NCBI GenBank assembly: GCA_963844695.1
Contig: CAWJPL010000035.1
Span: forward strand, 1,457-65,456
Reading direction: 5' to 3'
From: an uncultured Actinomycetes bacterium
GTDB lineage: Bacteria; Actinomycetota; Actinomycetes; Streptosporangiales; Streptosporangiaceae
DNA length: 64,000 nucleotides
The notes beneath the pieces are model-generated. The model was not told the DNA's origin, did not search any database, and worked only from the letters and a program-made list of their open reading frames with translations. How positions within the stretch are numbered: the stretch's first letter is position 1; each line of letters starts with the position of its first letter. This document shows positions 15,225 to 54,628 of this stretch, piece by piece. A program made the translations under genes and the position numbers.

Positions 15225-15255
15225 AAGTCGAACCGTTGACCGTCCGCTTTTCCGG
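15225..15255 (+). repeat. degenerate copy of the tRNA-Phe 3' half (old att remnant)
   Basis: aagtcgaaccgttgaccgtccgcttttccgg compares with gggtcgaaccgccgaccttccgcttttcagg in the tRNA gene and in the 46-kb copy. The similarity continues into the flanking arm. Confidence 0.55.
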
Positions 15256-15470
15256 GGTTCTGTCGCCATTTAGACCAGGATCTCGTAGGCAATGTGACAA
15301 CCCAGCTCCCCGGCATAGGTGCTGGTAAATGGGCCTACGCCGGCAGCATAGCGACCGTGCCGCCGTGGGCCACGTAGTCCCGTCTCGTCTCTGGCCTTCT
15401 GCTGGTGAGCCCTCCGGAAACAAGGACTTGTGGGGCTTCTGTGGGGCTCGGCAAGGCACGGACGGGCTCG
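15256..15470 (+). repeat. island distal-arm repeat, copy 1 (homologous to 46128..46342)
   Basis: Collinear with the 46-kb copy. The ungapped 114-nt core 15357..15470 versus 46229..46342 gives 99/114 identical by my manual count. Confidence 0.75.
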
Positions 15471-15662
15471 GTGCTTGCGCCGGGTGCGGAGAGCTGAGGC
15501 AGCCGTCCCGAAACGGTCGGGCTGCCGGATCGCTTGCAGCCAGGCGGACCAGAAAGTCCCCGGAGGAACTCCGGAGCGGTGTCGGATCGGGGCCGGGGTG
15601 TTCGTCGCAAGGATGAGAGGCCGCCCACCAGGGGCGCCCCCAAGGAGGATGGAACCGCGATC

Positions 15663-16274
15663 ATGAAACTCACGACCATCACGCAAATCACCGTCGATGG
15701 AGTGGTGCAGGGAAACGGCGCCGCGTCGGATGAGGACCGCAGGAACGGATTCGAGCGCGGCGGATGGGCCAAAGGGGCGGGCGACGACGAGACCAGGACG
15801 TTGATCACCCAGACCTACCAGCGAGCCGACGCGTTCCTGTTCGGCCGGCGGACCTACGAGCTCTTTGCCGGCTCCTGGGGAGCGATCGAAGAGATGCGCG
15901 CCCACCCCATCGGCGTGGCGCTGAACAAGACACCCAAGTACGTCGCGTCGACCACCCTCACCGAACCGCGCTGGGCGGACACGACCGTCCTGTCCGGTGA
16001 CCTCGCGGCGGCCGTCGGCCGGCTGAAGGCCCAGCCGGGCGGTGAACTGCAGGTGCACGGCAGCGGCACCCTGATCCGCTGGCTGGTCGACAACGACCTC
16101 GTCAACGAGATCACCCTGCTCATCGTCCCCGTGGTCCTCGGCCAGGGCACGCGGCTGTTCCCCGGCACCGGCCCGGACATGGCGCTTGACCTGGTCGAAT
16201 CGCGAGCCGACTCGAAGGGCGTAACGATCCAGGTCTACCGGCCGGCCGGGCGCCCTCAGTATGCGACCAGCTGA
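15663..16274 (+). CDS. dihydrofolate reductase family protein (RibD C-terminal domain-like)
   Basis: ATG 15663 follows AAGGAGGA. Sequence MKLTTITQITVDGVVQGNG...FLFGRRTYELFAGSW...LQVHGSGTLIRWL...LLIVPVVLGQGTRLF. Confidence 0.85.
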   Translation: MKLTTITQITVDGVVQGNGAASDEDRRNGFERGGWAKGAGDDETRTLITQTYQRADAFLFGRRTYELFAGSWGAIEEMRAHPIGVALNKTPKYVASTTLTEPRWADTTVLSGDLAAAVGRLKAQPGGELQVHGSGTLIRWLVDNDLVNEITLLIVPVVLGQGTRLFPGTGPDMALDLVESRADSKGVTIQVYRPAGRPQYATS

Positions 16275-16518
16275 AGCACGTGAGATAGCCCCTCGGTGTG
16301 GCGCTCTCGGTCCATGTAGCCCGGCGCCACCGGGGGGAGTAAATAAGTGGCTCCCCGGCCTGCATGTGCCTACCGTGGATGCTGGCTGGCCGACCTAGCG
16401 GTAAGGGCCAGAGTCCGGTCGTCCCGCGAGGGTTCGAGAAGCGTCAGGAAGTAGACCCGGCCTGGCCGCCAGCTCAACTCGGTTCGCGGGCAGAAAAGCG
16501 CGGTCCGTCAGGTTGAGG

Positions 16519-16986
16519 TCAAATTTTCAGCTGCAGTGCCTGGCTAAGTCTGCCTGCAATCTCGTCCATTACTGCTTCAGGTACATGACGGGCGGGATCG
16601 CCGCCGAGCAGTCCGAACACGCGCGGACCGCGCAGGTCAGCCTCCAGGCCGGGCTGGCGGGGGATGACGTGGAAGTGGAGGTGCTGAAAGCCTTCCGCTT
16701 CGGCGAACAACGCGACGTAGGTCTTGCGGCAGCCGGCCACATCTCGCAGCGCGGAGCTGACGGCTCTGAGCAGGGGTCCCAGATCGGCGGCTTCACCGGC
16801 GGTCAGGTCATCCAGCGCGACGGTATGACGGCGCAGGACAAGCACCAGCCAGCCGGGCAGCGACGTGCCGAACGCATGGGCAACGCGCCATCGCGGGCCG
16901 AGGTAGATCCGCTCTCGTGCAGGCAGATCTGCCCGCGCATTGTTAGCACAGCTCACGCACCCCTGATCTCCCGCCACGAGCCGCAT
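16519..16986 (-). CDS. HIT (histidine triad) family protein
   Basis: HLHFHVIPR histidine-triad motif. The plausible start is ATG 16986 (MRLVAGDQGCVSC...). Confidence 0.85.
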   Translation of the reverse strand: MRLVAGDQGCVSCANNARADLPARERIYLGPRWRVAHAFGTSLPGWLVLVLRRHTVALDDLTAGEAADLGPLLRAVSSALRDVAGCRKTYVALFAEAEGFQHLHFHVIPRQPGLEADLRGPRVFGLLGGDPARHVPEAVMDEIAGRLSQALQLKI

Positions 16987-17163
16987 TGTTCCAGGACGGC
17001 GTTCCCACTGCGACCAGCCAAGAGCCTCACCGTCGCAACCCCCAACGCCGGGACTCCCCCATCCGGCCGCGCTCCAGCCCGGTCCGCGGTAAATGACGAT
17101 GGCTCTGGCTGTGCACTGAATCGCGATCAACGCGCCTCAACTGGACGCGGTGACGGTACGTGG

Positions 17164-17652
17164 CTAGGCGAAATGCGACTCCACGATCGCGGCGAGGCCA
17201 TCGACTTCGCGTCGCAGTTCCGGAAGGCTCTCCACTGCAGCGGCCTCCCGCTGGAGGGCCAGGGCACGGATCTGACGCAGGATCGCGACTATCGCGGCGT
17301 GGTCGTCGATCAGGTTCCCGATCGCCGGGGCAAGGCCTGGCCGGGCATCGAGCAACTATGTAAACAGGCCGTCGTCTTCGCCCAGGTGATGCGTGGCCAG
17401 GGCTGAGCAGAACGCCAGGCAGTGGACCTGCAGCCCGTTAACCACGTGCTCATCCCCGCCAAGTGCTTCCCGGATCTGGACGAGTTCATCTCTCACCTGC
17501 TGGTGGGCACGCCGGAGCTGCAGGCTGAACGCCGCAGCCCGCTGCGTGTCGTTGGTGGCCACGCAGGTGGTCCCTTCATTCCTGCGCCTGCATGCCTGAC
17601 GCACTTCGCCACCGGCACGCGACGCGGCATCCATTCTGCGTTGGAGCTGCAT
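17164..17652 (-). pseudogene. hemerythrin (HHE cation-binding) domain protein with an in-frame TAG at 17356..17358
   Basis: Track ORFs 17356..17652 and 17164..17355 are contiguous in one frame: ...HCLAFCSALATHHLGEDDGLFT*LLDARPGLAPAIGNLIDDHAAIVAILRQI... This HH..E(E/D)..LF..L...P pattern is hemerythrin-like. Confidence 0.6.
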
Positions 17653-18416
17653 CAGGCGTTCCGCCGGGGCGGTTCCTGTTCGTCCAGGCGGGAGGCCTCC
17701 GCTGGGGTCAGGACCTCATCAGGACCGGGGGGCGTGATGTCGGCGGTCACACCGAAATCCCACAGCTCGACGATCGACCAGACCTGCTTGTCCGCGGCGG
17801 CGGCGGGCTCGGAGCTGACCGAGATGCGGCGGGCGAGGCCAGCCGCATCGAGCCACACCTCGGCAGGCATCCGGCTGAGCGCCCGATACGGCCCCGAGGG
17901 GACGCTCACCCCGGCCGGCAACGCCGCGTCTGCCCGGCCCAGGTCAACGGTGAGGCGGTAACGCGTCGCCGGGACCCCGCGCACCGCCTCCGGTCCGATC
18001 TCCACCACATCATCGCTGGCCCCGAACAGGGCATCCAGCGGCCAGAGCGGGTCATACGGCCCGAGCGGGCCGCCGGGATCGGTCAGGGAGATGCCTGTCC
18101 ACCCGTCAGCGTGCCGGAGATAGGCGTTCGCTCCGTCGTAGATCATCTCCGTCTGCCCGGCGCTCTCGCGAAGGCCCGGCTCGCCGTCACCGAGTTCCAT
18201 GAACGCAGCCGTCGCGCGGTCGGTGAGGAACAGCGACTGCGACACGCGGGCCCGGCGCGCGGCAAAGTCGGCCACCCCGTCGCAGCGCCGGTCGGGAGCC
18301 TCGGGCAGCGGTGAGCCGGTGCACCACGCGGCCAGCATCCGGGCCGTGCCGGCCGCGACCGTCCGCGCAGCGGCAGCAGCCACCCGGCCGCCGATGGGCT
18401 CCCTCACCGTGGGCAT
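17652..18416 (-). CDS. hypothetical protein
   Basis: ORF with strong GC3 bias. Its stop TGA shares one base (17652) with the downstream hemerythrin ATG (TGATG). The start is uncertain (ATG 18416, or upstream to 18491). Confidence 0.6.
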   Translation of the reverse strand: MPTVREPIGGRVAAAAARTVAAGTARMLAAWCTGSPLPEAPDRRCDGVADFAARRARVSQSLFLTDRATAAFMELGDGEPGLRESAGQTEMIYDGANAYLRHADGWTGISLTDPGGPLGPYDPLWPLDALFGASDDVVEIGPEAVRGVPATRYRLTVDLGRADAALPAGVSVPSGPYRALSRMPAEVWLDAAGLARRISVSSEPAAAADKQVWSIVELWDFGVTADITPPGPDEVLTPAEASRLDEQEPPRRNA

Positions 18417-18699
18417 GAATCCAACATAGTTGCGGCAACCCCAGGAAGCCACGGCGCCGGGACACGCAACGCGCGTAGTCGGCGCAGCCACGCAATCGGC
18501 GGCGCCGGGTTGCCAGACGAGCGTCGTCAGCGATCTGCGTGCCGGGGGACGAATAACGATGCCGAGTTGCCCATCGTCGGCCGCTGGTGGTGATCACGAC
18601 ATATATTGCGCAAACCAGTCGAGCATGGGTTGCGAGCGACGGTGGCCTGGCAGGCGCTCGCGACGGTCCCAGCGGAACACGCCACCTTGGGGAGTAACC

Positions 18700-19188
18700 A
18701 TGACAACAGAGGTCACCGAGGCCGACCTGCCGTACCTGCGCCGCTGCGTGGAACTGGCAACGGAGGCCGTCGAGGCGGGCGACTTCCCGTTCGGCTCCGT
18801 GCTCGTCGCCGCGAATGGGACCGTTCTCGCCGAGGACCGGAACCGGGAACTGACCGCGGGGGACCCGACGCGCCACCCGGAGTTCGCACTGGCGCGGTGG
18901 GCCGCGACGAACATGACCCCGCGGGAGCGGGCCGCGGCGACTGTCTATACCTCGGGCGAGCACTGCCCGATGTGCGCCGCCGCCCACGGCTGGGTCGGGC
19001 TGGGACGCATCGTGTACATCACCTCATCGGAGCAAACGGGCATCTGGCTCGCCGATCTGGGTGTCAGCCCGGCCCCGGTCCTGCCCTTGGCGATCACAGA
19101 GGTTGTTCCCAATCTGGTGGTGACAGGCCCGGTCCCCGATCTGGCGGAGCAGGTGCGCGACCTGCACCGCAGATTCCGCTCAGCGTAG
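18700..19188 (+). CDS. nucleoside/guanine deaminase (CMP/dCMP-type zinc deaminase fold)
   Basis: ATG 18700 follows GGGGAG. Zinc motifs HPEF (H-x-E) and EHCPMCAAA (PC-x2-C). Confidence 0.85.
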   Translation: MTTEVTEADLPYLRRCVELATEAVEAGDFPFGSVLVAANGTVLAEDRNRELTAGDPTRHPEFALARWAATNMTPRERAAATVYTSGEHCPMCAAAHGWVGLGRIVYITSSEQTGIWLADLGVSPAPVLPLAITEVVPNLVVTGPVPDLAEQVRDLHRRFRSA

Positions 19189-19246
19189 CGGGAGTCGGTT
19201 GAGGGGTTGTCGCTGGTGGGACGCTGGCGTTACCCCAGGTGAGGTT

Positions 19247-19280
19247 GGCGCCGCCCCGCTGGTGAGGCGGGAGCGGCGCC
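19247..19280. terminator. GC-rich hairpin between convergent genes (possible bidirectional terminator)
   Basis: GGCGCCGCCCCGC-tggtga-GGCGGGAGCGGCGCC gives about a 13-bp stem with one bulge. There is no U-tract. Confidence 0.4.
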
Positions 19281-19342
19281 CGGTAGCTGCCGGCCAGATG
19301 ACTGGGCCGGCCTGGCCAGGATTCGCAGGCTGACATAGGGGG

Positions 19343-20497
19343 TCAGCCGGCCGCCCGGAGCGGCCCGAAGAAAGCGCGCAGCTCACTGGCGACTTGCCCA
19401 GGTTCTTCGTGCGCCATGAAGTGCCCGCCGCGGCCCGGTGTGCTCCAGTGGCGCAGATCGGCGAAGACGCGTTCGGCCAGGCTCCTGGGGTAGGTCGCGT
19501 AGGCAGGCTCGTTGCTCAAGGTGACCGCTGCGGGCACGGTGATCTGGGGGACGGGCTCATTCAGCGGGTAGTTGTAGTACTGCCGAAACGATGAGCCGAT
19601 GGTGGCGGTCGCCCAGTACAAGGTCGCCACCGTGAGCAGCGTGTCCTTGTCCCAGCGGGTCTCCAGGTCCCCCTGGCAATCGCTCCAGTCACGGTACTTG
19701 TCGATGATCCAGGCGGCCATCCCGGCCGGGGAATCGGCCAGCGCAGCGGCGACGGTGTCCGGCCGGGTGCACATGATCTCGCTGTAGCCCTGGTCACCGG
19801 CGTCGTAAGCATCGCGCGCGTCGAGATACGCCTGCTCCGCTGCCGTCGGCGGCTGATCGGTGAAGTCGGTGGTGACGACCGCGGAGGTGATGTGAACACC
19901 CGTGACCTCTCGGGGGTACAGGGCGCCAAGCCACTGCGTCACCCCGCCGCCGATATCCCCGCCGAAAGCTCCGAAGTGCCGGTAGCCCAGAACCTGCGTC
20001 ATCAGCTCATGCCACAGCTCGGCGACGCGGCGGCGGGTGAACGGCCCGTGTGGAAGCTCGGAGTACAGGAATCCGGGCAAGGAGGGAATGACAACGTCGA
20101 AGGCCTCCGCGCGGTCGTCGCCAGCGCTGGCCGGGTCGGCGAGCAGTCGTCCGGCCTGCAGCATTTCCACAAAGCTGCTCGGCCATCCGTGCGTCATGAT
20201 CAGCGGCAGCGGGGACGGCACCCCTGTGGAGGCCTTGCCGCGCAGGTGGACGAAGTGGACACGGCGCCCGGCAACCTCGGCAACGTAGTGCGGGTAGGCG
20301 TTGAGCGCGCGCTCCGCGGCGCGCCAGTCGAAACCGTCGGCCCAGTAGGTGACCAGCTCGCGCAGGTAGCCGGGATCTGTTCCGGCCGCCCAGAACGCCT
20401 GGTCAGACGCCGCAGTGAACCGGGTCCGGGCCAGGCGGATGCGCAGGTCGTTCAGGACCTCATCGGATACGCAGATTCGGAAAGACGTTACTGTCAT
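19343..20497 (-). CDS. epoxide hydrolase (second EHN-type paralog)
   Basis: 384-aa ORF with VLNDLRIRLARTRF and the HGWPSSFVEM motif. Confidence 0.9.
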   Translation of the reverse strand: MTVTSFRICVSDEVLNDLRIRLARTRFTAASDQAFWAAGTDPGYLRELVTYWADGFDWRAAERALNAYPHYVAEVAGRRVHFVHLRGKASTGVPSPLPLIMTHGWPSSFVEMLQAGRLLADPASAGDDRAEAFDVVIPSLPGFLYSELPHGPFTRRRVAELWHELMTQVLGYRHFGAFGGDIGGGVTQWLGALYPREVTGVHITSAVVTTDFTDQPPTAAEQAYLDARDAYDAGDQGYSEIMCTRPDTVAAALADSPAGMAAWIIDKYRDWSDCQGDLETRWDKDTLLTVATLYWATATIGSSFRQYYNYPLNEPVPQITVPAAVTLSNEPAYATYPRSLAERVFADLRHWSTPGRGGHFMAHEEPGQVASELRAFFGPLRAAG

Positions 20498-20521
20498 TGT
20501 TTCTTGCCATCCTCATTGGCT

Positions 20522-20550
20522 ATTATCCCGCCTTATCCCCAGCGGAACAA
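20522..20550 (-). promoter_or_regulatory. candidate promoter TTGTTC-N17-GATAAT (minus strand) for the epoxide hydrolase paralog
   Basis: Reverse complement of attatc (20522..20527) and gaacaa (20545..20550). GAGGA lies just before ATG 20497. Confidence 0.35.
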
Positions 20551-20641
20551 TCTAGCCGCGTTCCGCGCCTACCAGGACGCCGCCCAATCGCTCACTCCAC
20601 AGCGCGGGGCCCGTCGGTGGCCACGAACAGGCCCAGGACGT

Positions 20642-21091
20642 TTATGACGGCCAGTCCCAGCCCAGCTGGGCGAACAGGCCCAGGCGGTCGCTGACGGCAC
20701 GGATCTCGGAGACCTTGCCGCGGTCGAGGGTGAAGATCCAGATCTGCTCGACTTCGAAGCGTCGGCCGGTCGGCTGAGGCATTCGGGGATGCGACCCGGT
20801 ATGCGTCCCACTGGCCATGAACCGGACGACCACCTGGTCGCCCTCGGCGATCAGTTCCTGGGGTGCCATCACGATGTCAGGGAACGCGGCGAGCTGCTGG
20901 GCGAAGCCGTCGAAGGCCGCGCCTGGTTCGTCGGCCTCACCATAGATGATCTTGTTGTGGTCGGTAACGTCCGCAGCGATGTGATCGGGCAGGTCGCCGA
21001 CCCGGTGCTCGTTCATGGCCTGGAACAAGCTGCGGATGGTCTGCTTGTTTGCCTCGATAGTAGTCACGTTTGCCTCGGCAACGGTCACCAT
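20642..21091 (-). CDS. SnoaL-like ester cyclase / NTF2-fold protein
   Basis: 149-aa ORF: ANKQTIRSLFQAMNEHRVGDL...VVVRFMASGTHTG...FEVEQIWIFTLDRGKVSEIRAVSD. Confidence 0.8.
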   Translation of the reverse strand: MVTVAEANVTTIEANKQTIRSLFQAMNEHRVGDLPDHIAADVTDHNKIIYGEADEPGAAFDGFAQQLAAFPDIVMAPQELIAEGDQVVVRFMASGTHTGSHPRMPQPTGRRFEVEQIWIFTLDRGKVSEIRAVSDRLGLFAQLGWDWPS

Positions 21092-21111
21092 GATTCTCCT
21101 CCTCGGTTTAT

Positions 21112-21126
21112 TCTTACGGTGTAAGA
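21112..21126. promoter_or_regulatory. 15-bp palindrome TCTTAC-N3-GTAAGA (putative TetR operator)
   Basis: The sequence tcttacggtgtaaga has perfect arms and lies in the 80-bp divergent intergenic region. Confidence 0.5.
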
Positions 21127-21133
21127 CGATATA

Positions 21134-21146
21134 CTTACGTCGTAAG
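21134..21146. promoter_or_regulatory. 13-bp palindrome CTTAC-N3-GTAAG (second putative operator, overlaps a TAAGAT -10-like hexamer)
   Basis: The sequence cttacgtcgtaag lies 21-22 bp from the first site and 26 bp upstream of GTG 21172. Confidence 0.5.
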
Positions 21147-21171
21147 ATGCGTCAAGCGAGAGGAGATGTGA

Positions 21172-21855
21172 GTGGCCAGCCGCGGTCAGGGCGAGCGTGC
21201 CGGGCTCAGCCGCGGATTGGTCCTGGATGCTGCGGTTGCCCTGGTGGACAGCGACGGTTTGGACGAGCTTTCCATGCGCAAGCTCGGCGCGGCTCTCGGC
21301 GTGGAGGCCATGACCCTCTACCACTACGTGCCGAACAAGGCGGCCCTGCTAGACGGGCTGGTCGAGTGGGTCCTGCAGCACAGCGCCACCGCACCGGCCC
21401 TCGCCGACGGCCTGTCCTGGGACCGGACGCTGCGCCGGTACGCGGAGACGCTGCGCACGACTCTGCTGGGCCATCCCGGGGTCCTGCCCCTATTCTTCAC
21501 CCGCCCGGCGGTGACGGCGCAGTCGCTCAAGGCGGTCGAAAACGGCCTTCGTGTGCTTACCGAAGCGGGCTTCGCGCTCCCGAAGGCACTCGACATGGTC
21601 AACGTCCTCAGCATTTTCGTGGTCGGCCACGCCATGGCTGAGGCCGGCACCGCCGAACTCAGCCGACGAGGCGATCCCGGATCGGCGGCCGCCTTGGCGC
21701 AGCTCGACGTCAGCGACCTGCCGCTCGTCATCGAAGCGGCGCGCCTCGCCCAGGACGCCGATGACCAAAGCCGATTCCTATTCGGTCTCGATGCCATTCT
21801 CTACGGCTTCGCCCGGTGGCAAGAACCAGGCAAGCAGACGGCGCACCGCGAGTGA
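21172..21855 (+). CDS. TetR family transcriptional regulator
   Basis: HTH LSRGLVLDAAVALVDSDGLDELSMRKLGAALGVEAMTLYHYVPNKAALLDGL. Divergent from the SnoaL-like gene. Confidence 0.9.
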   Translation: MASRGQGERAGLSRGLVLDAAVALVDSDGLDELSMRKLGAALGVEAMTLYHYVPNKAALLDGLVEWVLQHSATAPALADGLSWDRTLRRYAETLRTTLLGHPGVLPLFFTRPAVTAQSLKAVENGLRVLTEAGFALPKALDMVNVLSIFVVGHAMAEAGTAELSRRGDPGSAAALAQLDVSDLPLVIEAARLAQDADDQSRFLFGLDAILYGFARWQEPGKQTAHRE

Positions 21856-21884
21856 CTGGTCGGTCTTGATCGTTTCCATATAAA

Positions 21885-22365
21885 GGGTGCCTTTGGCCTG
21901 GGAAAAGAGCTGGGCGCGGGCCTGTCCGCAGGGCTGGCGCGGTGGCGGGCGCCACGGGCGGTGCCTGACCCGGGGAAGATCCTGGCCCACTTGGTAGTGA
22001 CGCTGGCGCTGGGCCGCGATTGCCTGTCCGATGTCGCGGCGCTGCGTGTTGTGCCGGAGATGGCCGGGCCCGTGACCTCCGACCCGGCGATCTCCCGTCT
22101 GGCCAGCGCGCTGGCCGCGGAGGGGTCGCGGGCTCTACGGGCGATCCGCAAGGCTCGCGCCGCGGACCGCGAGCGCGCCTGGGCGCTGGCCGGCGAGCAC
22201 GCGCCGGGCGGCGATGGGGCCCTGATCACGGTGGACATCGACGCCACGATCGTGACGGCGCTACTCGGACAACCAACAAACCGGGCGACGCATGCGATAA
22301 CCGCCGGTTCTGCGCGCCTAGCGGATAACGGCGCCATAGTCCGCGCCGCGCGCCGATCTGGGTAA
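21885..22365 (+). pseudogene. IS1380-family transposase N-terminal fragment
   Basis: ...GLSAGLARWRAPRAVPDPGKILAHLVVTLALGRDCLSDVAALRVVPEMAGPVTSDPAISRL...ITVDIDATIVTA matches the N-terminal third of IS1380-type transposases. Similarity is lost after about 22262. No catalytic part is present. Confidence 0.65.
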
Positions 22366-22428
22366 TTGGCATGGCTGGCGGCGCTCGGTCATGCCCGTGA
22401 GCGAAAGGTGGGTGCCCAGCGCTGGAGT

Positions 22429-22893
22429 CTAGGCCGGCTCCTCGTTGTCTGGGTTGCCTGCTAGTGCGCGGGCGGCTGCGGCCTGCCGGCTATCCATGCT
22501 CTGGTGGCCGTAGGCACTGCGCTTGCTTGCCTGCTGGTCGATCCACCGGCTGTGGGCCTCCCACGCGGATTGCTTGGTGGTACCGAGGGCAGCGCCGATT
22601 TGTGTCCACGAGGCACCTGCTGCGCGTGCAGACCGCACCGTAAGCTGGCGGCCGTAGGCGGCCTTGCGGGCGATCACCTCGCTGAGGGCAAGCAGTTCCA
22701 GGGCCTCTTCCCGGGATAGTGCCCCGGGCTCCGGCTGGTCGTCTGCTGGCAAGTCCTCAGCGCCCGGTGCGAGGAGGTCTCGCATGCGCAATTCGTCATA
22801 GCGGGCGACGGCGGTGGCGAGGGTGTGCTGGCGCTCGAGGCTGGCCGGAGTCGTCATAGCCCCACTCTTGACGTCAGGCTGTCCTGACGTCAA
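22429..22893 (-). CDS. hypothetical protein with a possible HTH (ASWTQIGAALGTTKQSAWE)
   Basis: 154-aa ORF. The start is uncertain (ATG 22893 or 22857). Confidence 0.55.
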   Translation of the reverse strand: MTSGQPDVKSGAMTTPASLERQHTLATAVARYDELRMRDLLAPGAEDLPADDQPEPGALSREEALELLALSEVIARKAAYGRQLTVRSARAAGASWTQIGAALGTTKQSAWEAHSRWIDQQASKRSAYGHQSMDSRQAAAARALAGNPDNEEPA

Positions 22894-23032
22894 GGGGTCC
22901 CGGCGGGATTACGCTGCCAGCGTGTCCGCCGGGCCCGTGCCGGGCGAGCAGGCCACGCATCTTCGTGTCACTCGGCCTCACGATTCGCGGCATGCGAGCG
23001 CGCCGACTTGTGGCCGCCAGCACTCATTCTTA

Positions 23033-23419
23033 TCAGCGGGTCGTGATAGTGCCTTGGTGGTGGAATACCTGCCAGTGGCCGGGCGCGACGCGGCGCCACA
23101 GCGAGGTGCGGTTGGATCGCCTGCCATGGTTCTCGGAGGTGTACTTGACCATAACGAGACCCTCTCCCAGCAGCCATCCCCGCATGTTCTCCACGCTGAT
23201 CGGCTCACCTTGAGGATCCGTGGCTGCGGCCACCCGCTCAGCCGTTCCTTCGTTTCCGATCTCGCCTCCGGAGGCACCGAACTCGTGGAAGTCGGGCGCG
23301 AGCAATCGTCCAAGCCGGGCCGCATCTGCCCGGCACTCCAGGCTCAGTGACTCATACTCGGCTGACATGGCCTCAGCGATCTGCTCATCAGCAGCGACCT
23401 GTCCGCTGGCCTTGTCCAT
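23033..23419 (-). CDS. NTF2-fold / DUF4440-like protein
   Basis: 128-aa ORF: LLAPDFHEFGASGGEI...VMVKYTSENHGRRSNRTSLWRRVAPGHWQVFHHQGT. Confidence 0.7.
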   Translation of the reverse strand: MDKASGQVAADEQIAEAMSAEYESLSLECRADAARLGRLLAPDFHEFGASGGEIGNEGTAERVAAATDPQGEPISVENMRGWLLGEGLVMVKYTSENHGRRSNRTSLWRRVAPGHWQVFHHQGTITTR

Positions 23420-31020: not shown

Positions 31021-31022
31021 GG

Positions 31023-46809: not shown

Positions 46810-49800
46810 GTGTGGTTCAGGCTGCTCGGGGCGGTAGAGGTTTCCGCGGACGGAACCTCGCTTCCGCTGGGTGGCCCCAGGCAGCGGTCGGTGCTGGCCG
46901 ATCTTGCCCTGCATGTAGGCCGGGCTGTCCCTACGGCGCAGTTGATCGTCGATGTGTGGGGGGAACGGCCGCCAAGCTCGGCGGTCCACACCCTGGAGAG
47001 CTATGTCTCCCGGCTGCGCCATGTGCTGAACGCCTCCGGTGCGGCTGGCGCCGTGGTGGTCAGCAAGTCGGCCGGGTACATGCTCGACGCAGTACCAGGA
47101 AACGTCAACGTGTGGCGGTTCCGGGAACTGGCCGCGAGAGGGGGCGCGGCGGTCGAGGCGGGTGATGCGGCCACGGCGGCGGCACTGGTCGGCGCCGCGA
47201 TCGACTTGTGGCGCGGCCCGGCGCTCGCAGATATCAGGGAGGCGGCGTTTGCCCCGCCCGCGGTGCAGCGGCTGGAAGAGGAGCGGCTGACCGCGCTGGA
47301 GAACCTAATGGAGGCGCGGCTGGCGTTGGGGCGGCACCGCGAGCTCGTGGCCGAGCTTGAGGCGCTGATCGCCGGTTCCCCATACCGCGAGCATTTCCAC
47401 GCGCAGCTGATGCTGGCGTTGTACCGTTCGGGCCGGCAGGCTGATGCGCTGGCCGCCTTCGGCCGCGTCCGCGATACGCTGTCCGGCGAGCTTGGCATCG
47501 AGCCTGGCCGGAAGCTGTGCGAGCTTCAGCATGCGGTGCTGCTGCAGGCGCCCGAACTGGAACCGCGCGTCGCCGCTGCCCGCCTGGGCCCGCGCCAGAT
47601 GGCTGACCGGCAGCCAAGCGCACCGGCTGCGCCGCCGGCGGCGGGGCCTGTCCGTGCGCGTGGGGGCCGCGCCTGGCGGTGGGCTGCGGCAGCTGCGGCG
47701 CTTGGCCTAGCTGCCGCAGCGGTCGTGCCGATCCTGGTGGGCATGGGGGCCGCCCATGGCAAGACGCTTGCGGGCGGCGTGGGTGAGGTGTCCGCGGCCG
47801 GCGGTATCGCCCGCAGCGTGGCCCTGCCAGGCCCACCGGGTGCCGCCGTGGCGGCGGATGGCTCGGTATGGGTGACCAGCCCCGAGGGCAACGTGGTTTA
47901 CCGGATCGACCCGGTCACCGGGTCGCTGGTGCAGACCATACCGGTGGGCTCTGGCCCCAGCGCGATCACCGCCAGCGGTGCCGATATCTGGGTGGCCAAC
48001 ACCCTGGACGGTACGGTCTCCCGGATCAGCGCGGCCGCTAACGCGGTCGTTCAGACCGTCAATGTCGGCACCGAGCCCACCGGCATCACCGCGGACGGCG
48101 GTTCCATCTGGGTAGCAGATGCCTCGGCCAGTACCTTGTCAGCGCTCAGCTCCGTCTCCGGGCGGCTGACATCTACTATCCCTTTGCCGTCGCCGCCGTT
48201 CGGGGTCGCCTTTGGTGCTGGCTCGGTGTGGGTGACCAGCCCGGCGGACAACAACGTCACCCGGGTCGATCCGCGCACCGGCCAGCCGGGCCAGCAGATC
48301 ACGGTCGGTGCCGGGCCTACGGCTGTCGCGTTTGGCCTTGGTTCTGTGTGGGTCGCCAACAGCCTGGATAGCACAGTCTCCCGTATCGATCCCGGCACTG
48401 ACTCCGTCGCTGCCGTGATCCCGGTCGGGGATGGCCCGGACGCGCTGGCGATCACCAGGGACTCGGTCTGGGCAGCGGACCGGCTGTCGGGCGCGCTGAC
48501 CAGGATCAGCTCCGGCGGCGCCAGCCCGGTGAGCGCGATCCTCCTGGGCGGCAGCCCAGTGGCGCTAACAACCGCCGGTGACCGGGTCTGGTTCGCGGTC
48601 GGCGCTGCGAGCTCCGCCCGGCGGGCTGGCGGCACGCTGAATGCAGTCGTCAGCTACCCGCCCACGTCGATCGACCCTGCCCTGCAGTACCCCCAGATGC
48701 CGCCTCAGTTCTCCGACGCCACCTATGACACGCTTGTGACGTTCCAGAAGACCGGTGGCAGCGCCGGCCTGCAGCTGGTACCTGACCTGGCCCTTGCCAT
48801 GCCTGCCGTGACCGGCGGTGGGACCGTGTACAGGTTCACGCTGCGGCCCGGCCTGCGGTATTCGACGGGGCAGCTAGTGCGCCCGGAGGATTTCCGTTAC
48901 GCGATCGAGCGCGTCCTGGACCTCGACCCGGAAGCGGGCGCCTTCCTCGACGGGATCTCAGGGGCGTCAGCCTGCGTCCCGGGGAAGCTGTGCGACCTGG
49001 CCCGCGGGGTAACGGTCAACGGATCCGCCAGAACTGTGACGTTCCGTCTGAGCGCACCAGACCCTGACTTCCTGTACAAGCTGGCCTTCGGGTTCACCGC
49101 ACCGGTACCGTCCTACATCCCGGCCCGCGATGCCGGCCGTGATCCTGTGCCAGGCACCGGCCCCTACATGATCACCCGGTATGTTCCCGGCCGCCGGGTC
49201 GTGTTCGCGCGCAACCCGCACTTCCGGGAATGGTCGGCGGCCGCCCAGCCCGCGGGCTTCCCCGATCGCATCGTCTGGACCTTCGGCACCTCGCTCACCC
49301 GTGAGGCCGCCGAGATCGAGGCCGGGCAGGCAGACTGGACTAACGACCCGCTGCCCGGCCTCGCCGGGCTCAGAGCTCGGTTCCCAGCCCAGGTGCACAT
49401 CAGCACGCTGCCCGAAATCGTCTTCGCCGCGTTCAACACTCGGGTGGCGCCGTTCAACGACCCCCGGGTCAGGCGGGCGTTCAGCCTCGCCGCTGACCGT
49501 AACCGCTTCGTCGCAGCACTGGGCGGCCCCGGCCAGGCCGAACCGACCTGCCAGATCCTGCCGCCGGGCATTCCGGGCTACCGGCCCTACTGCCCGTTCA
49601 CCGCCGACCCCAGCGCCTCTGGCGCCTGGGTCGGCCCCGACCTGGCCGCCGCCCGCAGGCTTGTGGCCGCGTCCGGGACCAGGGGCATGCGCGTCACCGT
49701 GTGGTCCGACGACCAGGCCCCGGACGGCACTACCGCTGCCTTCATTGTCTCCGTCCTGCACATGCTCGGCTACCGGGCGGCTGCGCACGTCGTTCCGAAC

Positions 49801-50202
49801 GAAGCACTGGGCCGGGCGGTGAACGACTCGCGCCGCCGGATCCAGGCAACCGACGGCGACTGGGGCGCGGACTACCCCTCGGCGTCGGATTTCTTTGACG
49901 AGTTCTTCCGCTGCTCGGCCTTTCGCCTCGACGACCCCGCCGCCACCCGGAACGGCTCGTTCTTCTGCGACCCCGCGGCTGACCGGCTGATGAACGTCGC
50001 AGACAGCGAGCAGCTGACCAGCCCACTTCAGGCCGCAGGGACATGGGCAGCTGTCGATCGGGCGGTCACACGGGCGGCTCCGTGGGTAACCCTGGCCGTC
50101 CTGAAGAACACCGATTTCCTGTCCGCCCGGATAGGCAATTACCAGTACAACCCGTTCTGGGGCGTGCTCCTGGATCAGCTGCAGATCCGCCCTCGGCGAT
50201 GA
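46810..50202 (+). CDS. membrane-anchored SARP-type regulator: OmpR/PhoB-like wHTH + BTAD, one TM helix, beta-propeller (NHL/YVTN-like) repeats, family-5 solute-binding (SBP_bac_5) domain
   Basis: VWFRLLGAVEVSADGTSLPLGGPRQRSVLADLAL... (SARP wHTH). LWRGPALADI...HFHAQLMLALYRSGRQADALAAFGRVRDTL..ELGIEPG (BTAD). RARGGRAWRWAAAAAALGLAAAAVVPILVGMGAA (TM, about 47676..47750). About 6-7 repeats of the form VWV(T/A)....V.RIDP.....TIPVG.GP.AI. A C-terminal region of about 530 aa looks like a peptide/nickel SBP. The start is GTG 46810 or ATG 46762. Confidence 0.85.
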   Translation: MWFRLLGAVEVSADGTSLPLGGPRQRSVLADLALHVGRAVPTAQLIVDVWGERPPSSAVHTLESYVSRLRHVLNASGAAGAVVVSKSAGYMLDAVPGNVNVWRFRELAARGGAAVEAGDAATAAALVGAAIDLWRGPALADIREAAFAPPAVQRLEEERLTALENLMEARLALGRHRELVAELEALIAGSPYREHFHAQLMLALYRSGRQADALAAFGRVRDTLSGELGIEPGRKLCELQHAVLLQAPELEPRVAAARLGPRQMADRQPSAPAAPPAAGPVRARGGRAWRWAAAAAALGLAAAAVVPILVGMGAAHGKTLAGGVGEVSAAGGIARSVALPGPPGAAVAADGSVWVTSPEGNVVYRIDPVTGSLVQTIPVGSGPSAITASGADIWVANTLDGTVSRISAAANAVVQTVNVGTEPTGITADGGSIWVADASASTLSALSSVSGRLTSTIPLPSPPFGVAFGAGSVWVTSPADNNVTRVDPRTGQPGQQITVGAGPTAVAFGLGSVWVANSLDSTVSRIDPGTDSVAAVIPVGDGPDALAITRDSVWAADRLSGALTRISSGGASPVSAILLGGSPVALTTAGDRVWFAVGAASSARRAGGTLNAVVSYPPTSIDPALQYPQMPPQFSDATYDTLVTFQKTGGSAGLQLVPDLALAMPAVTGGGTVYRFTLRPGLRYSTGQLVRPEDFRYAIERVLDLDPEAGAFLDGISGASACVPGKLCDLARGVTVNGSARTVTFRLSAPDPDFLYKLAFGFTAPVPSYIPARDAGRDPVPGTGPYMITRYVPGRRVVFARNPHFREWSAAAQPAGFPDRIVWTFGTSLTREAAEIEAGQADWTNDPLPGLAGLRARFPAQVHISTLPEIVFAAFNTRVAPFNDPRVRRAFSLAADRNRFVAALGGPGQAEPTCQILPPGIPGYRPYCPFTADPSASGAWVGPDLAAARRLVAASGTRGMRVTVWSDDQAPDGTTAAFIVSVLHMLGYRAAAHVVPNEALGRAVNDSRRRIQATDGDWGADYPSASDFFDEFFRCSAFRLDDPAATRNGSFFCDPAADRLMNVADSEQLTSPLQAAGTWAAVDRAVTRAAPWVTLAVLKNTDFLSARIGNYQYNPFWGVLLDQLQIRPRR

Positions 50203-50427
50203 TGCCCCGGCAGGCAGGCCCTCCCCTTCCCGCCAGCACGATCTAGGTTGCGCCAAAGCGCGATCTGCTGGCTGCAGCCTGCCACCTGCGATCCGATCAT
50301 CTTGCGATCAGGCTCCGAGCCAGTTCTGGTTGCCTTGTCGCCACCAGTGGCTGCTGGGGGGCTGCACCATCAGGCTTGCGACCTCCGGCCGTTCGGGAGC
50401 CGCAGCTTGAGTCTTCAGGGGAGAAAC

Positions 50428-52893
50428 ATGAAGCAATCACGTTGGACATCTCGCAGGCTGCCAGGTCCCCGGATGGTTGCGGCGCTGGCGGTGGCTGGCT
50501 GCGCGGCAGTCTCCCTTGTCGTGGCGGGCGGTGCGGTGGCGTCTGGCTCGGCTGCGCCGTTGCCTGGTTCTGTTGCGCCTCGCGCGCCGCAGGCGGCGCG
50601 GTTCGGGGCTTTGCGGTTCGGGCCCGCCCGCCCGGCCGGCACAGGGCAGTCGGTGCTGGATCGGCTGGCCGGCGCGGCTCAGGCCGGGCCGGGTCGGCAG
50701 GGCGGGTTTGTGGTGCTGGGCGGCAGCCCGGGCGCCCCGGCCGCCAACCCCAGGACCGATACCGTTTACATGCCGATCCAGTGCCGTACGAGCTTCTGCC
50801 CCTCCTCAGGCAAGCCTGGGCACGTCGTGGACATCATCAACGCTTCGAAGTGCAACGCCACGATCAGGTCCGGGTGCCGGGTGGTCGCGACGATCAGGGT
50901 CGGCAGCTCCCCGCTGGCGGCTGCCGTCGATGAGCGTACCGACACCGTTTATGTCACCAACGGCAACGACGGCACAGTCTCGGTGCTGAACGGCGCCCGG
51001 TGCAACGCGCGGGTGACCCGCGGCTGCCGGCCGGTGGCGACGGTCAAGGTGGGGAAGGGACCGGTCGCCGCGGTCGTCAACCCGGCCACGCGCACGCTCT
51101 ATGTGGCGAACGTCGCCGCGGGTAGCGTCTCGGTGATCAACGCGGCCAGATGCAACGCCAAGATCACGCGAGGGTGCCGGCGCCCGGCCCGGACAGTGAC
51201 CGACAAGGCCAGCCCGTCCTGGCTCGATGTTGACAGCGCGACCGACACCGTCTACGTGGCGAACAGCGTCACCCCGGGCACCGTGTCGGTGATCGACGGG
51301 GCCGCGTGCAACGGGCACACCGGCCGCGGCTGCGGGCGGGTCCCGGCAACCGTCACGGTGGGTGCCAGCCCCTTCGCGCTCGCCGTCGACCGCGCCAGCG
51401 ACACCGTCTATGTCGCTAACTTCGTCAACGAGTTCAACGGCGGGTCGGTGTCGGTCATCAACGGCGCCCAGTGCAACGCCAAGATCACCTCCGGCTGCGG
51501 CCGCACGCCACCGGCCGTGCCCACCGGCATCGGGACCGGCTTCGTCGCGGTCAACGGCGCCCTGCACACCGTGTTCGCGGCCAATGCGGCCGACGACACG
51601 CTGTCGGCGATCAACACCCGGACCTGCGACGGGACGGTGACATCCAGCTGCGCGACCCGGCCGCCGAACCTGCGGGCCACCTCCCTCCAGGGCCCCGGAT
51701 ACAACTCGTTCCCGGGCGGCTTCGCGCTCCTCCCGAAGGCGGGCACCGCCTACGTGGTGAACATCGGGGGCCGGAACATCGTGTCGGTGACCAGCATCAA
51801 CCACTGCAACGCCACCAGCACCGCCGGCTGCCGCGCCGAGGCGCCTACCGTGCCGGAGGGCGAGTTCCTGTTGTCAGCCGACCCGGCCACCAATACCATC
51901 TACGGCGGCAACCTCAGCCAGCCGGTGATCGACGTGATCAACAGCGCGACCTGCCATGCCCGGCGTCTGGCCGGCTGCGCCCCGGCCGCGGAGATCCCGG
52001 TTCCTGACCGGGGCGCCAACGTCGGGGCAATCGATCACGCCACCCACACCCTGTACGCCGCCGCCCCGTCGTCCGACAACGTGTTCGCGATCAACACCGC
52101 CACCTGCAACGCCGAGCGCACCTCCGGCTGCGCCGCCGCCCCGCCAACCATCAAGATCGGCGCATCCCTCAAAGTGCCGGCCGTCAACCCCGCCACCCAG
52201 ACCATGTACGTGTCCTACGGCGCCAACGCCAACAAGGTCGCGGTCGTCAACGCCGCCACCTGCAACGCCATCAACACCTCCGGCTGCTCGCAGACCCCGG
52301 GCGTGGTCAGAGTCGGCGCCGGCACCGTCATCCTGGGCGTCAGCGCCGCCACCGACACCGTCTACGCCCCCAGCGGGGCGGAGAACGCGGTCGCAGTGAT
52401 CAACGGTGCCACCTGCAACGGGACCGACCATTCTGGCTGCGGGCACCTCGCCGCCACTGCCAAGGTAGGCATCGACCCGTTCGGGGCCGCGGTCAACGAC
52501 CACACCCACACCGTGTACGTGACCAACAACGCCGACGGCGACTCACCCGGCACCGTGTCGGTCATCAACGCCGCCACCTGCAACGCCACCAACACCACCG
52601 GCTGCCACCGGCGGTTCCCCACCGCCGCCACCGGCAACTCACCGCTGCTCATCACCGCGGACACCCGCACCGGCGTCCTCTACATCACCAACTTCTCCAG
52701 CGCCTCGGTGACCATCCTGAATGGAAAACGCTGCAACGCGACGGTCACCAGCGGCTGTACCAAGGCCACGCGCGAGCAGTCGGTCGGCTCGGGACCATCC
52801 GGGCTTGCCGTCAACCCGCGCACCCGCACCATCTACGTCGGCAACGGCTACCTGCCCGGATCCCTGTCAATCTTCAGAGCTACCCGCCGTTGA
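50428..52893 (+). CDS. secreted YVTN-family beta-propeller repeat protein (~13-14 blades, each with a conserved C-x7-C pair)
   Basis: ATG 50428 follows AGGGGAG. Signal/lipobox-like N-terminus MKQSRWTSRRLPGPRMVAALAVAGCAAV. There are 13 units of the form T(D)TVYV(A/T)N...(G)(T/S)VSVIN.A.CNA....GC...(A)TV.VG..P.(L/A)AV. The track ORF starts upstream at 50248. Confidence 0.85.
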   Translation: MKQSRWTSRRLPGPRMVAALAVAGCAAVSLVVAGGAVASGSAAPLPGSVAPRAPQAARFGALRFGPARPAGTGQSVLDRLAGAAQAGPGRQGGFVVLGGSPGAPAANPRTDTVYMPIQCRTSFCPSSGKPGHVVDIINASKCNATIRSGCRVVATIRVGSSPLAAAVDERTDTVYVTNGNDGTVSVLNGARCNARVTRGCRPVATVKVGKGPVAAVVNPATRTLYVANVAAGSVSVINAARCNAKITRGCRRPARTVTDKASPSWLDVDSATDTVYVANSVTPGTVSVIDGAACNGHTGRGCGRVPATVTVGASPFALAVDRASDTVYVANFVNEFNGGSVSVINGAQCNAKITSGCGRTPPAVPTGIGTGFVAVNGALHTVFAANAADDTLSAINTRTCDGTVTSSCATRPPNLRATSLQGPGYNSFPGGFALLPKAGTAYVVNIGGRNIVSVTSINHCNATSTAGCRAEAPTVPEGEFLLSADPATNTIYGGNLSQPVIDVINSATCHARRLAGCAPAAEIPVPDRGANVGAIDHATHTLYAAAPSSDNVFAINTATCNAERTSGCAAAPPTIKIGASLKVPAVNPATQTMYVSYGANANKVAVVNAATCNAINTSGCSQTPGVVRVGAGTVILGVSAATDTVYAPSGAENAVAVINGATCNGTDHSGCGHLAATAKVGIDPFGAAVNDHTHTVYVTNNADGDSPGTVSVINAATCNATNTTGCHRRFPTAATGNSPLLITADTRTGVLYITNFSSASVTILNGKRCNATVTSGCTKATREQSVGSGPSGLAVNPRTRTIYVGNGYLPGSLSIFRATRR

Positions 52894-53374
52894 CACGGCG
52901 GCGGACAGGGCCGCAGCGACCAGCCCTGCTCAGCGATGCCAGGCCCGGCTCAAGGCACGGGTGGGGAGCGTCTGGCCGTCTGGGGATTGATGATCGTGGC
53001 GGTCATGGGTTGGGATTCGCCCACCGAAGCAGACGGGCGGAACCCTGGAGGTGACCGGCCTCTTCGCCGGATCTGACGATGCCCCGAACTTGCCGTTCCT
53101 CGACGCCGACCTGGGCGACTTGAGATTCACGGCTGCTCATAGTGACAATCTGGCGTACCCGGGATGCATGACAACGCTAGGTCGCTGCCCTCCACAAACT
53201 ACGGCAAGCTCCAGACTACGAGTGAATACGCTAGGCAGCGCATAAGCATGCGTTTACGCAATGCACCCAATTCGGCAGATCCGGTTGGATCGGCAAGACC
53301 GCAGTGCTGGCACCTGGTTGCTAGCAGCACGGATCTCCGCTGTCGGTACATGCAGTGTTAGAAGATCATGCACG

Positions 53375-54391
53375 TCACCATGGACGAGCTGATGCTGTTA
53401 CCCATAGGGATGTCAGCGCGTGACGAGAACGGCGATAGGGGCTGATCTCCATGATGCGGTCGTAGGTGCGGCGGGCCCGGGCGCTGCGGGCGCTGGCGCC
53501 GTAGCGTCGCAGCATCTGCGGGGAACTCCAGCCGTTGAGCTCCATCAGGTCCCCCTCTGCGCCGCCCCGGTCCAGCCAGATGTGGCTGAAATGGTGCCGG
53601 AACCGGTGCGGCCAGGCATCCACCCCGCACTGGCGGCCGCGGCGGGCGATCATCTGGTAGATGCCGTTGGCGGTCATCGGGCCCCGGTTATTCATCCCAA
53701 GCCACAGCTGAGGCCGCCACGCCTGCGCATGCTTTGACCGGATCCGGACGTACCTGTCCAGAGCCAGAGCCGCCTCGTGCCCGATCCTGACGATCCGCGG
53801 CCTGCCGCCCTTGCCGCGGACGGTGATCTCGCGCTGCTGCAAGTCGAGGTCGCTGCGGCTGGCGTCGTCCGGGTCGTAGCGGATCCCGGCCAGTTCGCCG
53901 GCCCGGATCCCGCTCGCCTTGAGCACCGCGATCACCGCTGCGTCGCGGCGCTGGGCGAAGGTACGGCCCTGGCAGGTTCTCTCCAGGGCCGATAGTTCTC
54001 CGCTGGTGAACACCGGCACCAGCTTCTCGGCCACCTTCGGCGCGCGCAGCCGGGCCATCGGGTCGGGGATCTGCTCCTCCTCGGCGAGCCATCTGAAGAA
54101 CTGCTGCAGCGCCCGGTACTGGTTGCTGGCATACGCGTCGCTGTACCGGGTCAGCAGATGGACCAGCCACCTCTGCACATCGTGGGCGTCTACCTGCTCC
54201 CACCTGGTCCGCGAGGTGCGGGGGATCAGGTGCGCAGCGGCGAACCATGCCACCGCGTCGGTGTAGGTCCGCACCGTCTTGGCCGCCTTGCCCTCGGCGG
54301 CCAGGTGCAGCCGGAACGAGCCGATCTCAGGCTGGAAAACCCCGGCGTCAAGCGGCTTGCGCCGCCGGGGACACGGTTGCGGGACGGTCAT
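53375..54391 (-). CDS. int: tyrosine recombinase/integrase (intact)
   Basis: SAM-like N-domain (FRLHLAAEGKAAKTVRTYTDAVAWF) and a catalytic domain with RDAAVIAVLKASGIRAGEL (R), HRFRHHFSH (H-x-x-R...H) and MLRRYGAS (Tyr). The plausible start is ATG 54391 (MTVPQPCP...). The ORF is open to 54490. Confidence 0.9.
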   Translation of the reverse strand: MTVPQPCPRRRKPLDAGVFQPEIGSFRLHLAAEGKAAKTVRTYTDAVAWFAAAHLIPRTSRTRWEQVDAHDVQRWLVHLLTRYSDAYASNQYRALQQFFRWLAEEEQIPDPMARLRAPKVAEKLVPVFTSGELSALERTCQGRTFAQRRDAAVIAVLKASGIRAGELAGIRYDPDDASRSDLDLQQREITVRGKGGRPRIVRIGHEAALALDRYVRIRSKHAQAWRPQLWLGMNNRGPMTANGIYQMIARRGRQCGVDAWPHRFRHHFSHIWLDRGGAEGDLMELNGWSSPQMLRRYGASARSARARRTYDRIMEISPYRRSRHALTSLWVTASARPW

Positions 54392-54554
54392 TGTTTTTCT
54401 CTCTTCCTGCGGTTCCGCTGAAGCGCACGCATCCGCGCTTAAGCGTTTCCGCAGGTCAGAGAAGTTAAGAGAAAGCGCATCACGCGCCATGAGAATCCCT
54501 CTCTTCCTGCGATTAGCGCAGGTGAGAGGGCTGGCAGATGCTACGAGAACGAGG

Positions 54555-54628
54555 TGGTCAGGGGCGGGGTCGAACCGCCGACCTTCCGCTTTTCAGGCGG
54601 ACGCTCGTACCGACTGAGCTACCTGACC
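54555..54628 (-). tRNA. tRNA-Phe (anticodon GAA)
   Basis: Manual cloverleaf: GGTCAGG-TA-GCTC-AGTCGGTAC-GAGC-G-TCCGC-CTGAAAA-GCGGA-AGGTC-GGCGG-TTCGACC-CCGCC-CCTGACC-A. Confidence 0.9.

Follow-up and report, generated by a model that had tools for sequence, protein, structure and literature searches.

The 64,000-nt stretch of DNA analysed here (the window; contig CAWJPL010000035.1 of assembly GCA_963844695.1, from an uncultured member of the Streptosporangiaceae) carries an intact tRNA-Phe gene, followed by genes for tRNA-Asp and tRNA-Glu, and three further copies of the 3′ part of that tRNA-Phe gene spread over the DNA to its left. These copies, together with the 3′ part of the gene itself (cores 1 to 4, from left to right), divide the DNA between them into segment A, segment B and island C (Table 1). 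A sequence-only reading of this DNA had proposed three integrative islands, stacked by serial integration at the tRNA gene. Below we describe the cores, the integrase genes and arms beside them, and the state of the site in relatives, and we argue that the region is an accretion zone of integrated elements.

The core spans the last anticodon-stem bases, the anticodon loop and the remainder of tRNA-Phe to two bases beyond the discriminator, and all four copies lie in one orientation, as direct repeats. A 43-mer taken from position 54553 recurs exactly at 46083-46125 and with two mismatches at 33526-33568; dinucleotide shuffles gave 0 expected matches, and 0 of 100 shuffles contained any. The sequence-only reading had matched the last 43 nt of the tRNA gene (54555-54597) to 46085-46127 at 43/43 positions, and self-blastn lengthens this identity block to 45 nt (54553-54597 = 46083-46127). 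It had also described a copy with one extra T at 33528-33571, which we recover as 46 nt at 33526-33571, and a degenerate copy at 15225-15255, which we place at 15227-15255 with 25 of 29 positions matching. Apart from those of a short arm remnant, taken up below, its coordinates are correct to about 2 nt. Taken alone, core 1 is a weak match (E = 6e-5). It abuts a 215-nt stretch of arm homology (15256-15470 versus 46128-46342; 81% identity, E = 8e-53), and because of this adjoining homology the leftmost boundary is secure. A word-6 search detected no further core copies in the window, including near 18.5 kb, where homology to one relative (L085) breaks. Close relatives of the window were metagenome contigs with ~93% nucleotide identity; loci are given as L numbers throughout.

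We considered whether the repeats are merely a local segmental duplication, or a generic dispersed repeat unrelated to integration, as the sequence-only reading had itself envisaged. Nothing beyond the existence of the repeats speaks for this. They are exact copies of a tRNA 3′ part, all on the 3′ side and in one orientation, and they are flanked by integrases and arms; the segments between them show no mutual homology beyond those arms and integrases in self-blastn; and a 28-mer from the core occurs only within tRNA-Phe or at element junctions across 129 fetched loci. We count this explanation as refuted. By its extent, from the anticodon loop to the 3′ end, the core fits with tRNA integration sites of the anticodon-loop class, reportedly described by Williams (2002, Nucleic Acids Res 30:866).

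Table 1. Positions of the features described in the text, from the tRNA genes leftward (numbering of the window)
Feature	Position	Strand	Basis or remark
tRNA-Asp and tRNA-Glu	54674-54847		Next after tRNA-Phe
tRNA-Phe(GAA), intact	54553-54628	-	ARAGORN; Rfam tRNA 54555-54628, 69.9 bits
Core 4, 3′ 45 nt of tRNA-Phe	54553-54597		tRNA-proximal attachment (att) junction
Island C, 8.4 kb, youngest	46128-54552		Distal arm, two large cargo genes and IntC; two exact 45-nt cores
Integrase-proximal arm of island C	54491-54552		Integrase upstream region, ~60 nt
IntC, XerC/D-like tyrosine integrase, 371 aa, intact	53375-54490	-	Pfam, PDB; exact product on record
Propeller protein, 881 aa	50248-52893		Island C cargo
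SARP/BTAD + beta-propeller + SBP_bac_5 fusion, 1146 aa	46762-50202		Pfam Trans_reg_C + BTAD, SARP-like
Distal arm of island C	46128-46342		~215 nt, non-coding
Core 3	46083-46127		45/45 identical to tRNA 3′ part; junction of segment B and island C
Segment B	33572-46082
IntB pseudogene and proximal arm	44986-46082	-	IntB 44986-45999; tblastn, Pfam on fragment, blastn
Middle of segment B	35025-44985		Mosaic with insertion sequences; Pfam
DDE_Tnp_1 transposase	42005-43210		Segment B
Split IS4-family transposase	37173-38523		Segment B
Distal-end remnant of AICE-like element	33572-35024	-	95-97% identical to L118-L125
PadR gene	34442-34861	-	Partner of 243-aa open reading frame
243-aa open reading frame	33714-34445	-	Adjoins core 2; 97%-identical homologues
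Core 2	33526-33571		46 nt, one extra T; junction of segments A and B
Segment A, 18.3 kb, oldest	15256-33525		C-type distal arm 15256-15470; no integrase
ISAzo13-family transposase	30927-32300		Segment A
Core 1	15227-15255		Truncated, degenerate; core positions 17-45, 25/29; outermost att scar
Conserved left flank, DUF6529 gene and upstream region	14563-15226	-	Pfam; 93-95% in L081-L084, L101

The integrase of island C, IntC, contains the Pfam domains Phage_integrase and Phage_int_SAM_4, and its nearest PDB entry is the XerC-like 4a8e (2.6e-15). Its gene is read from the tRNA-proximal end inward, into the element. The coordinates in Table 1 are those of the maximal open reading frame (ORF); the start at 54391 given by the sequence-only reading is a possible alternative. 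The frame contains no stop, and the motifs GIRAGEL, GKGG, HRFRHH, GW and RRYG are present in alignment. IntC homologues number more than 2,600 at E ≤ 1e-20 and come mostly from soil. The closest phage relatives reach only 33-35% identity, and plasmid matches fall below 30%. A second integrase gene, that of IntB, lies immediately left of core 3 and shares 73% amino acid identity with IntC over 44986-45999 (tblastn). Two lesions interrupt it, an in-frame stop near 45732 and, near 45040, a frameshift that leaves the C-terminal RRYGAS motif out of frame. In nucleotide terms, 44986-46127 and 53448-54597, each comprising integrase, upstream arm and core, are 77.7% identical over 1155 nt. The proximal arm of island C matches 46035-46080 at 93.5% over 46 nt, and L085, L088 and L115 at 90-96%. 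The prediction of homologous integrases left of the first two boundaries, one intact and one decayed, with conserved integrase-proximal arms, is therefore borne out. The ~22-nt arm remnant proposed to the left of the 33.5-kb repeat fared differently: the candidate there (33481-33500) matches at 80% over 20 nt with E = 2.1, indistinguishable from chance. No integrase remnant was detected by tblastn anywhere between 15 and 33.5 kb.

At its other end, island C begins with the distal arm, which is 88-93% identical to sequences in L085 (1868-2090), L089 (14452-14665), L118 (2024-2280) and L119. This arm is common to elements with unrelated cargo, and its conservation is second only to that of the integrase. 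As candidates for what it encodes, a structured RNA and a small gene were both rejected: Rfam gave no match, neither strand showed convincing covariation, and there was no consistent ORF. Island C is bounded by two cores that agree at 45/45 positions, one of them within a complete tRNA-Phe gene; an intact integrase ORF stands at its tRNA-proximal end; and both the occupancy of the site and its content vary among relatives. We conclude that island C appears to be a structurally intact tRNA-integrating island. Its present-day mobility is plausible, because the integrase is intact, the repeats are exact and the arms are 88-96% identical to those of relatives. In its cargo, the gene for the 881-aa propeller protein has internal repeats of ~150 nt at 50.9-52.6 kb, with unusually even G+C contents at first and second codon positions.

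Segment B has a different composition at each end. At its left, the stretch 33527-35024 shares 95% identity with the distal end of an 8.6-kb element on the peat metagenome contigs L118 and L119, and homology stops at 35024. That element is bounded by two perfect 45-nt cores (L118 2281-2325 and 10874-10918) and encodes a 429-aa integrase (Phage_int_SAM_3), an excisionase (HTH_17) and RepSA; its distal end consists of the same 243-aa ORF and PadR gene as in the window, and a C-type distal arm lies on its integrase side. The RepSA, excisionase and SAM_3 integrase of L118 gave no tblastn match in the window. The right-hand arm of core 2 is not C-type because the end of the RepSA element lies there. 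Apart from two transposase genes, the middle of the segment contains a Nudix gene, two small ORFs, PhyH, a methyltransferase fragment and a bestrophin-like gene. Assignment of the Nudix gene and small ORFs (35-37 kb) to the remnant of this element, which resembles an actinomycete integrative and conjugative element (AICE), was rejected: a 185-aa ORF among them occurs in unrelated contexts, and L118 homology ends before them, at 35024.

Segment B thus cannot be read as a single former element; with an AICE-like, RepSA-type distal end and a XerD-type integrase end, it is a chimera of two element types. A deletion across an inner junction, possibly mediated by insertion sequences, would have fused them. 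Cores remain on both sides (33526-33571 and 46083-46127) around an integrase gene with a stop and a frameshift, which is the configuration of a cis-mobilisable element (CIME). At least two unrelated integrase families, XerC/D-like and a pSAM2-like int-xis-RepSA type, have used the same core. With two element types joined in segment B, the window thus preserves traces of four or more integrations, made by these two families.

Segment A likewise has cores at both ends (15227-15255 and 33526-33571) and no integrase, as in a CIME. Its cargo, according to Pfam, includes RibD_C, a deaminase, an epoxide hydrolase, SnoaL, TetR, PIN, APH and LysM/transglycosylase genes, as well as methyltransferases, a glyoxalase and GNAT. 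The portion at 15.5-18.5 kb is 93-95% identical to L084 and L085. In L085 the order is distal arm, core, proximal arm and IntC-type integrase (94% nucleotide identity), and past the integrase come homologues of window positions 17644-18488 and 16342-17170 and of RibD_C. The L085 integrase accordingly belongs to an element that carries the left-hand genes of segment A, and another element lies on its tRNA side. We conclude that segment A is probably composite, because these left-hand genes adjoin an IntC-type integrase in L085, and that 18.5-33.5 kb is probably separate material. In L084, the DUF6529 gene is joined directly to RibD_C, without ~15222-15530, and an IntC-type integrase (92.2-92.5% nucleotide identity) lies ~6.4 kb away, with a second integrase fragment. 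A dispersed repeat of 56-165 nt with 75-84% identity occurs at 16292-16347 in segment A and 38692-38746 in segment B, and also at L089 12299-12463 and L087 15427-15496; it may be a miniature inverted-repeat transposable element or an insertion-sequence end.

Beyond core 1, the window shares a methyltransferase/DUF6529 flank with L081-L083 and L101. This homology reaches as far as 15226 (L081-L083) or 15223 (L101), up to the outer boundary of the degenerate core, and other DNA follows. As far as shown, the left flank is the outer limit of the accreted DNA, although older, fully decayed accretions may lie further left of 15226. The DNA at 11001-15226 itself varies in close relatives: ~11620-13115 is replaced in L084, and in L081-L083 the DUF6529 and methyltransferase genes are separated by a GrpB gene, which is absent from the window. 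A 40-nt imperfect palindrome (85%) lies at 10831-10870, within a zone of GC skew of -0.28 at 10-11 kb. In L081, a terminator-like hairpin to the left of the core was considered as the native flank of the tRNA gene, which would have made the 7.2 kb there ancestral chromosome; this was rejected, since the same arm is the integrase-side arm of the L118 RepSA element.

Variation among relatives is extensive on the tRNA side as well. Members of the IntC family stand directly beside tRNA-Phe in L088, L089, L090, L115 and L116, in the same orientation as in the window and with different cargo in each, and these loci are syntenic (acyl-CoA dehydrogenase (ACAD), major facilitator superfamily (MFS) gene, tRNA(Glu-Asp-Phe)). 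Tandem junctions or second decayed integrases are found in L085, L087, L090, L084 and L118. Of these, L090 has a second integrase remnant and L087 has an integrase and core but no tRNA 5′ half; in L089, a C-type distal arm lies 4.7 kb from the tRNA. Across 11,114 nt that take in the integrase, L088 and L089 share 99.85% identity; from 58 nt past the integrase stop they are unrelated. Homology among the window, L084 and L115-L117 ends at 53271/2, ~100 nt beyond the integrase stop. That cargo changes abruptly 58-103 nt after the integrase gene ends suggests a module boundary or a breakpoint favoured by recombination; no recombination-site motif was seen at these breakpoints. One locus is not accounted for by a simple model: L086 10001-10969, on the same contig as L001, encodes an IntC homologue (75% amino acid identity) 10.7 kb from tRNA-Phe, in the opposite orientation and with no core copy nearby.

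A breakpoint of this kind raises the possibility that integrase and arms form a resident, vertically inherited docking platform, which takes up and sheds integrase-less cargo circles in the manner of an integron. The identity of the L088 and L089 integrases next to unrelated cargo, the shared break at 53271/2 and an integrase divergence that roughly tracks that of host genes are all compatible with such a platform. However, inner segments contain integrase genes or remnants of their own (IntB, and those of L090 and L084), the two integrases of the window are only 73% identical and so represent two lineages, the conserved distal arm travels with the elements, and no site motif is apparent at the cargo breakpoints. 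We consider a resident platform very unlikely.

More distant comparison gave a similar picture of variability. The nearest GTDB species representatives are Streptosporangiaceae metagenome-assembled genomes whose acyl-CoA dehydrogenase, used as an anchor, is 77-84% identical to that of the window. The tRNA(Glu-Asp-Phe)/ACAD synteny, with MFS where present, is kept in ten of them (L001-L003, L006, L007 and L010-L014), and within 4-9 kb left of tRNA-Phe none of these ten has IntC, DUF6529 or a second core. No integrase stands beside tRNA-Phe in any of L001-L014. The DNA left of tRNA-Phe is unlike in each species representative, with only L006 and L011 sharing a neighbouring gene; left flanks were compared by ORF-level tblastn, tblastx yielding noise in this high-G+C DNA. 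We conclude that the spot to the left of tRNA-Phe is hypervariable across the family.

Taken together, these observations are best explained if circular elements integrated site-specifically, again and again, downstream of tRNA-Phe and so formed an accretion zone there; we put the probability of this reading at roughly 0.85. The attachment site of each circular element (attP) would carry 45 bp of tRNA-Phe, from the anticodon loop to the 3′ end, and crossover probably took place in the anticodon-loop region. Integration would rebuild the tRNA gene with the element's own copy, and the 3′ half that is displaced would remain at the opposite end of the element as a direct repeat. The newest element would thus come to lie beside the tRNA and push older ones outward, where integrases and arms would later decay; the probable order of events in the window follows from this. 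In segment B, deletion and insertion-sequence activity would have left only parts of two or more elements, and segment A would retain only a distal arm and cargo. The XerC/D-like elements would share one design, in which arbitrary cargo lies between one end with the ~60-nt proximal arm and integrase and an opposite end with the ~215-nt arm; genes for replication, for transfer or for an excisionase were not detected in them.

The state of the segments agrees with this order. Decay increases outward, from an intact integrase and exact repeat, through a pseudogene, to no integrase and a degenerate repeat. Composition also sets the islands (66.3-68.5% G+C; G+C at third codon positions (GC3) 0.82-0.85) apart from the flanks (70-72%; GC3 0.89), in a window whose G+C ranges from 63 to 76%; the sequence-only reading had proposed a compositional profile as a check. 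Every test run supports serial integration at one tRNA gene with the youngest element next to it, and the estimate of ~39 kb of accreted accessory DNA, 60% of the window, stands as well. The count of three islands needs qualification: the elements are stacked, but three is only a minimum, given a chimeric segment B and a probably composite segment A. Relatives do not carry the same block unchanged but vary in island content, and an empty site was not found among them.

Several observations weigh against accretion by serial integration, or limit it. No clean empty site, with tRNA-Phe joined to the DUF6529 flank, appeared in genome or metagenome scans; a metagenome scan with a 24-nt flank motif returned 24 loci, one of them a true relative (L101), which is occupied. 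Pfam and PHROGs scans of the window ORFs revealed no excisionase in the XerD-type elements. The outermost core is truncated and neither arm at core 2 is C-type; segments A and B therefore need secondary deletions. The DNA at 11-15.2 kb, left of the boundary, also has low G+C (67.5%), so that accreted DNA may reach further left. Lastly, the divergence of the tRNA-adjacent integrase among relatives is similar to that of host genes, and long residence therefore fits as well as repeated arrival.

In a rival reading, the array, or large parts of it, was put together in a different genome and reached this one as a single composite, through cis-mobilisation of tandem elements or homologous recombination via conserved flanks, with few or no integrations in this lineage. 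The hypervariability of the whole region between relatives speaks for this. Composite transfer of accreted tandems is documented (PMC5704250), tandem homologous arms and integrases offer many recombination substrates, and L118 and L119 have the arrangement seen in the window, a RepSA element followed by a C-type arm on the tRNA side. On the other hand, the DNA at 15.5-18.5 kb is 93-95% identical to L084 and L085, which equals the divergence of the flank, whereas the tRNA-proximal parts differ, pointing to stepwise change within the lineage; and decay is graded outward. The scars would in any case remain integration scars, so that only the place of integration is at issue. We regard composite arrival as unlikely.

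The gene content of the window was scanned with Pfam and PHROGs across ~45 ORFs. Beyond the integrase genes, these scans returned cargo and insertion sequences only. Neither RepSA, RepAM, Prim-Pol nor an excisionase was detected in the window ORFs, and FtsK_SpoIIIE was absent both from these and from the precomputed Pfam annotation of L118-L125, as would not be expected of an AICE. No relaxase or mobilisation domain typical of an integrative and mobilisable element (IME) was found by Pfam, an oriT being unrecognisable from sequence alone. As to a prophage or satellite, PHROGs gave the integrase and one weak helix-turn-helix match, and the best phage integrase is 35% identical. By gene content, the window would thus be classed as neither AICE, IME nor prophage.

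Tandem arrays at a single tRNA or tmRNA gene have been described repeatedly. In Streptomyces avermitilis, AICESav3728 and AICESav3708 lie in tandem at tRNA-Arg with a 44-bp att site between them, and the AICEs pSE211, pMEA100 and pMR2 target tRNA-Phe (PMC2440964). Dehalococcoides carries tandem genomic islands at ssrA (PMC3146451), and accretion together with CIMEs is exemplified by ICESt1/CIME in Streptococcus thermophilus (PMC5704250). In these systems, as here, successive integrations restore the target, and a short att copy separates neighbouring elements; the most recent arrival adjoins the gene, older ones that have lost their integrase turn into CIME-type remnants, and different integrase families act on one site. 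The present locus differs in its host, an uncultured member of the Streptosporangiaceae, in its target, tRNA-Phe, and in its dominant elements, which encode a XerD-like integrase alone, no relaxase, Rep, Tra or Xis being detectable in them. The L118/L119 element resembles pSAM2-type int-xis-repSA modules (PMC2440964): its int, xis (HTH_17) and RepSA genes follow the order of pSAM2, two tRNA-Phe cores enclose it, and the window keeps 1.45 kb of its distal end. Unlike those modules, the window lacks Rep, Xis and FtsK-like Tra, and no Tra was seen in L118. IntC and IntB also differ from AICE integrases, being XerD-like with a SAM_4 N-terminal domain and facing the opposite way. We conclude that the locus is a new example, from an uncultured lineage, of well-documented tandem accretion at tRNA/tmRNA genes, the principle of which is textbook.

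A further precedent is provided by the tycheposons of Prochlorococcus (bioRxiv 10.1101/2020.12.28.424599). Common to both are small cargo elements with an inward-facing tyrosine recombinase by the tRNA, integrase clades that are specific to a tRNA, stacked elements separated by partial tRNA copies, fragmented integrases, and highly variable cargo that builds up an island. Here, however, no replication module or hallmark gene was detected, and the host is a high-G+C soil actinomycete; the likeness is one of architecture, and we do not claim membership. We offer, as a speculation that we think unlikely to hold, that soil Streptosporangiaceae harbour an undescribed and very abundant class of minimal cargo shuttles, which the XerD-like integrase, ~60-nt arm and ~215-nt arm would together define. 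Such shuttles would be functional counterparts of tycheposons without replication, transfer or excision genes of their own, they would exchange cargo at a fixed breakpoint shortly after the integrase gene, and the distal arm would be functional, for instance as an arm-site cluster or a small RNA.

Two further observations concern the right-hand part of the window. A tRNA-Lys gene lies at its edge (62545-62619), after which G+C drops to 0.63 (63001-64000), and a large serine recombinase is encoded beside the orthologous tRNA-Lys in L088 and L089 (1-1029); this tRNA-Lys may be a second integration hotspot. A 371-aa protein without a Pfam domain (61347-62462) has a 64%-identical paralogue in a variable region of L081 (2984-4105) and L101 (3-373).

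For the biology of this organism, the analysis indicates that ~60% of a 64-kb stretch was assembled via one tRNA-Phe landing pad, where old arrivals decay into fixed accessory DNA. Annotation should regard positions 15227-54552 as a mosaic of horizontally acquired DNA. For the family, the locus points to a large, uncharacterised group of tRNA-Phe-specific XerD-like integrases, whose elements are unusually minimal and turn over their cargo even between strains that are 99.85% identical.

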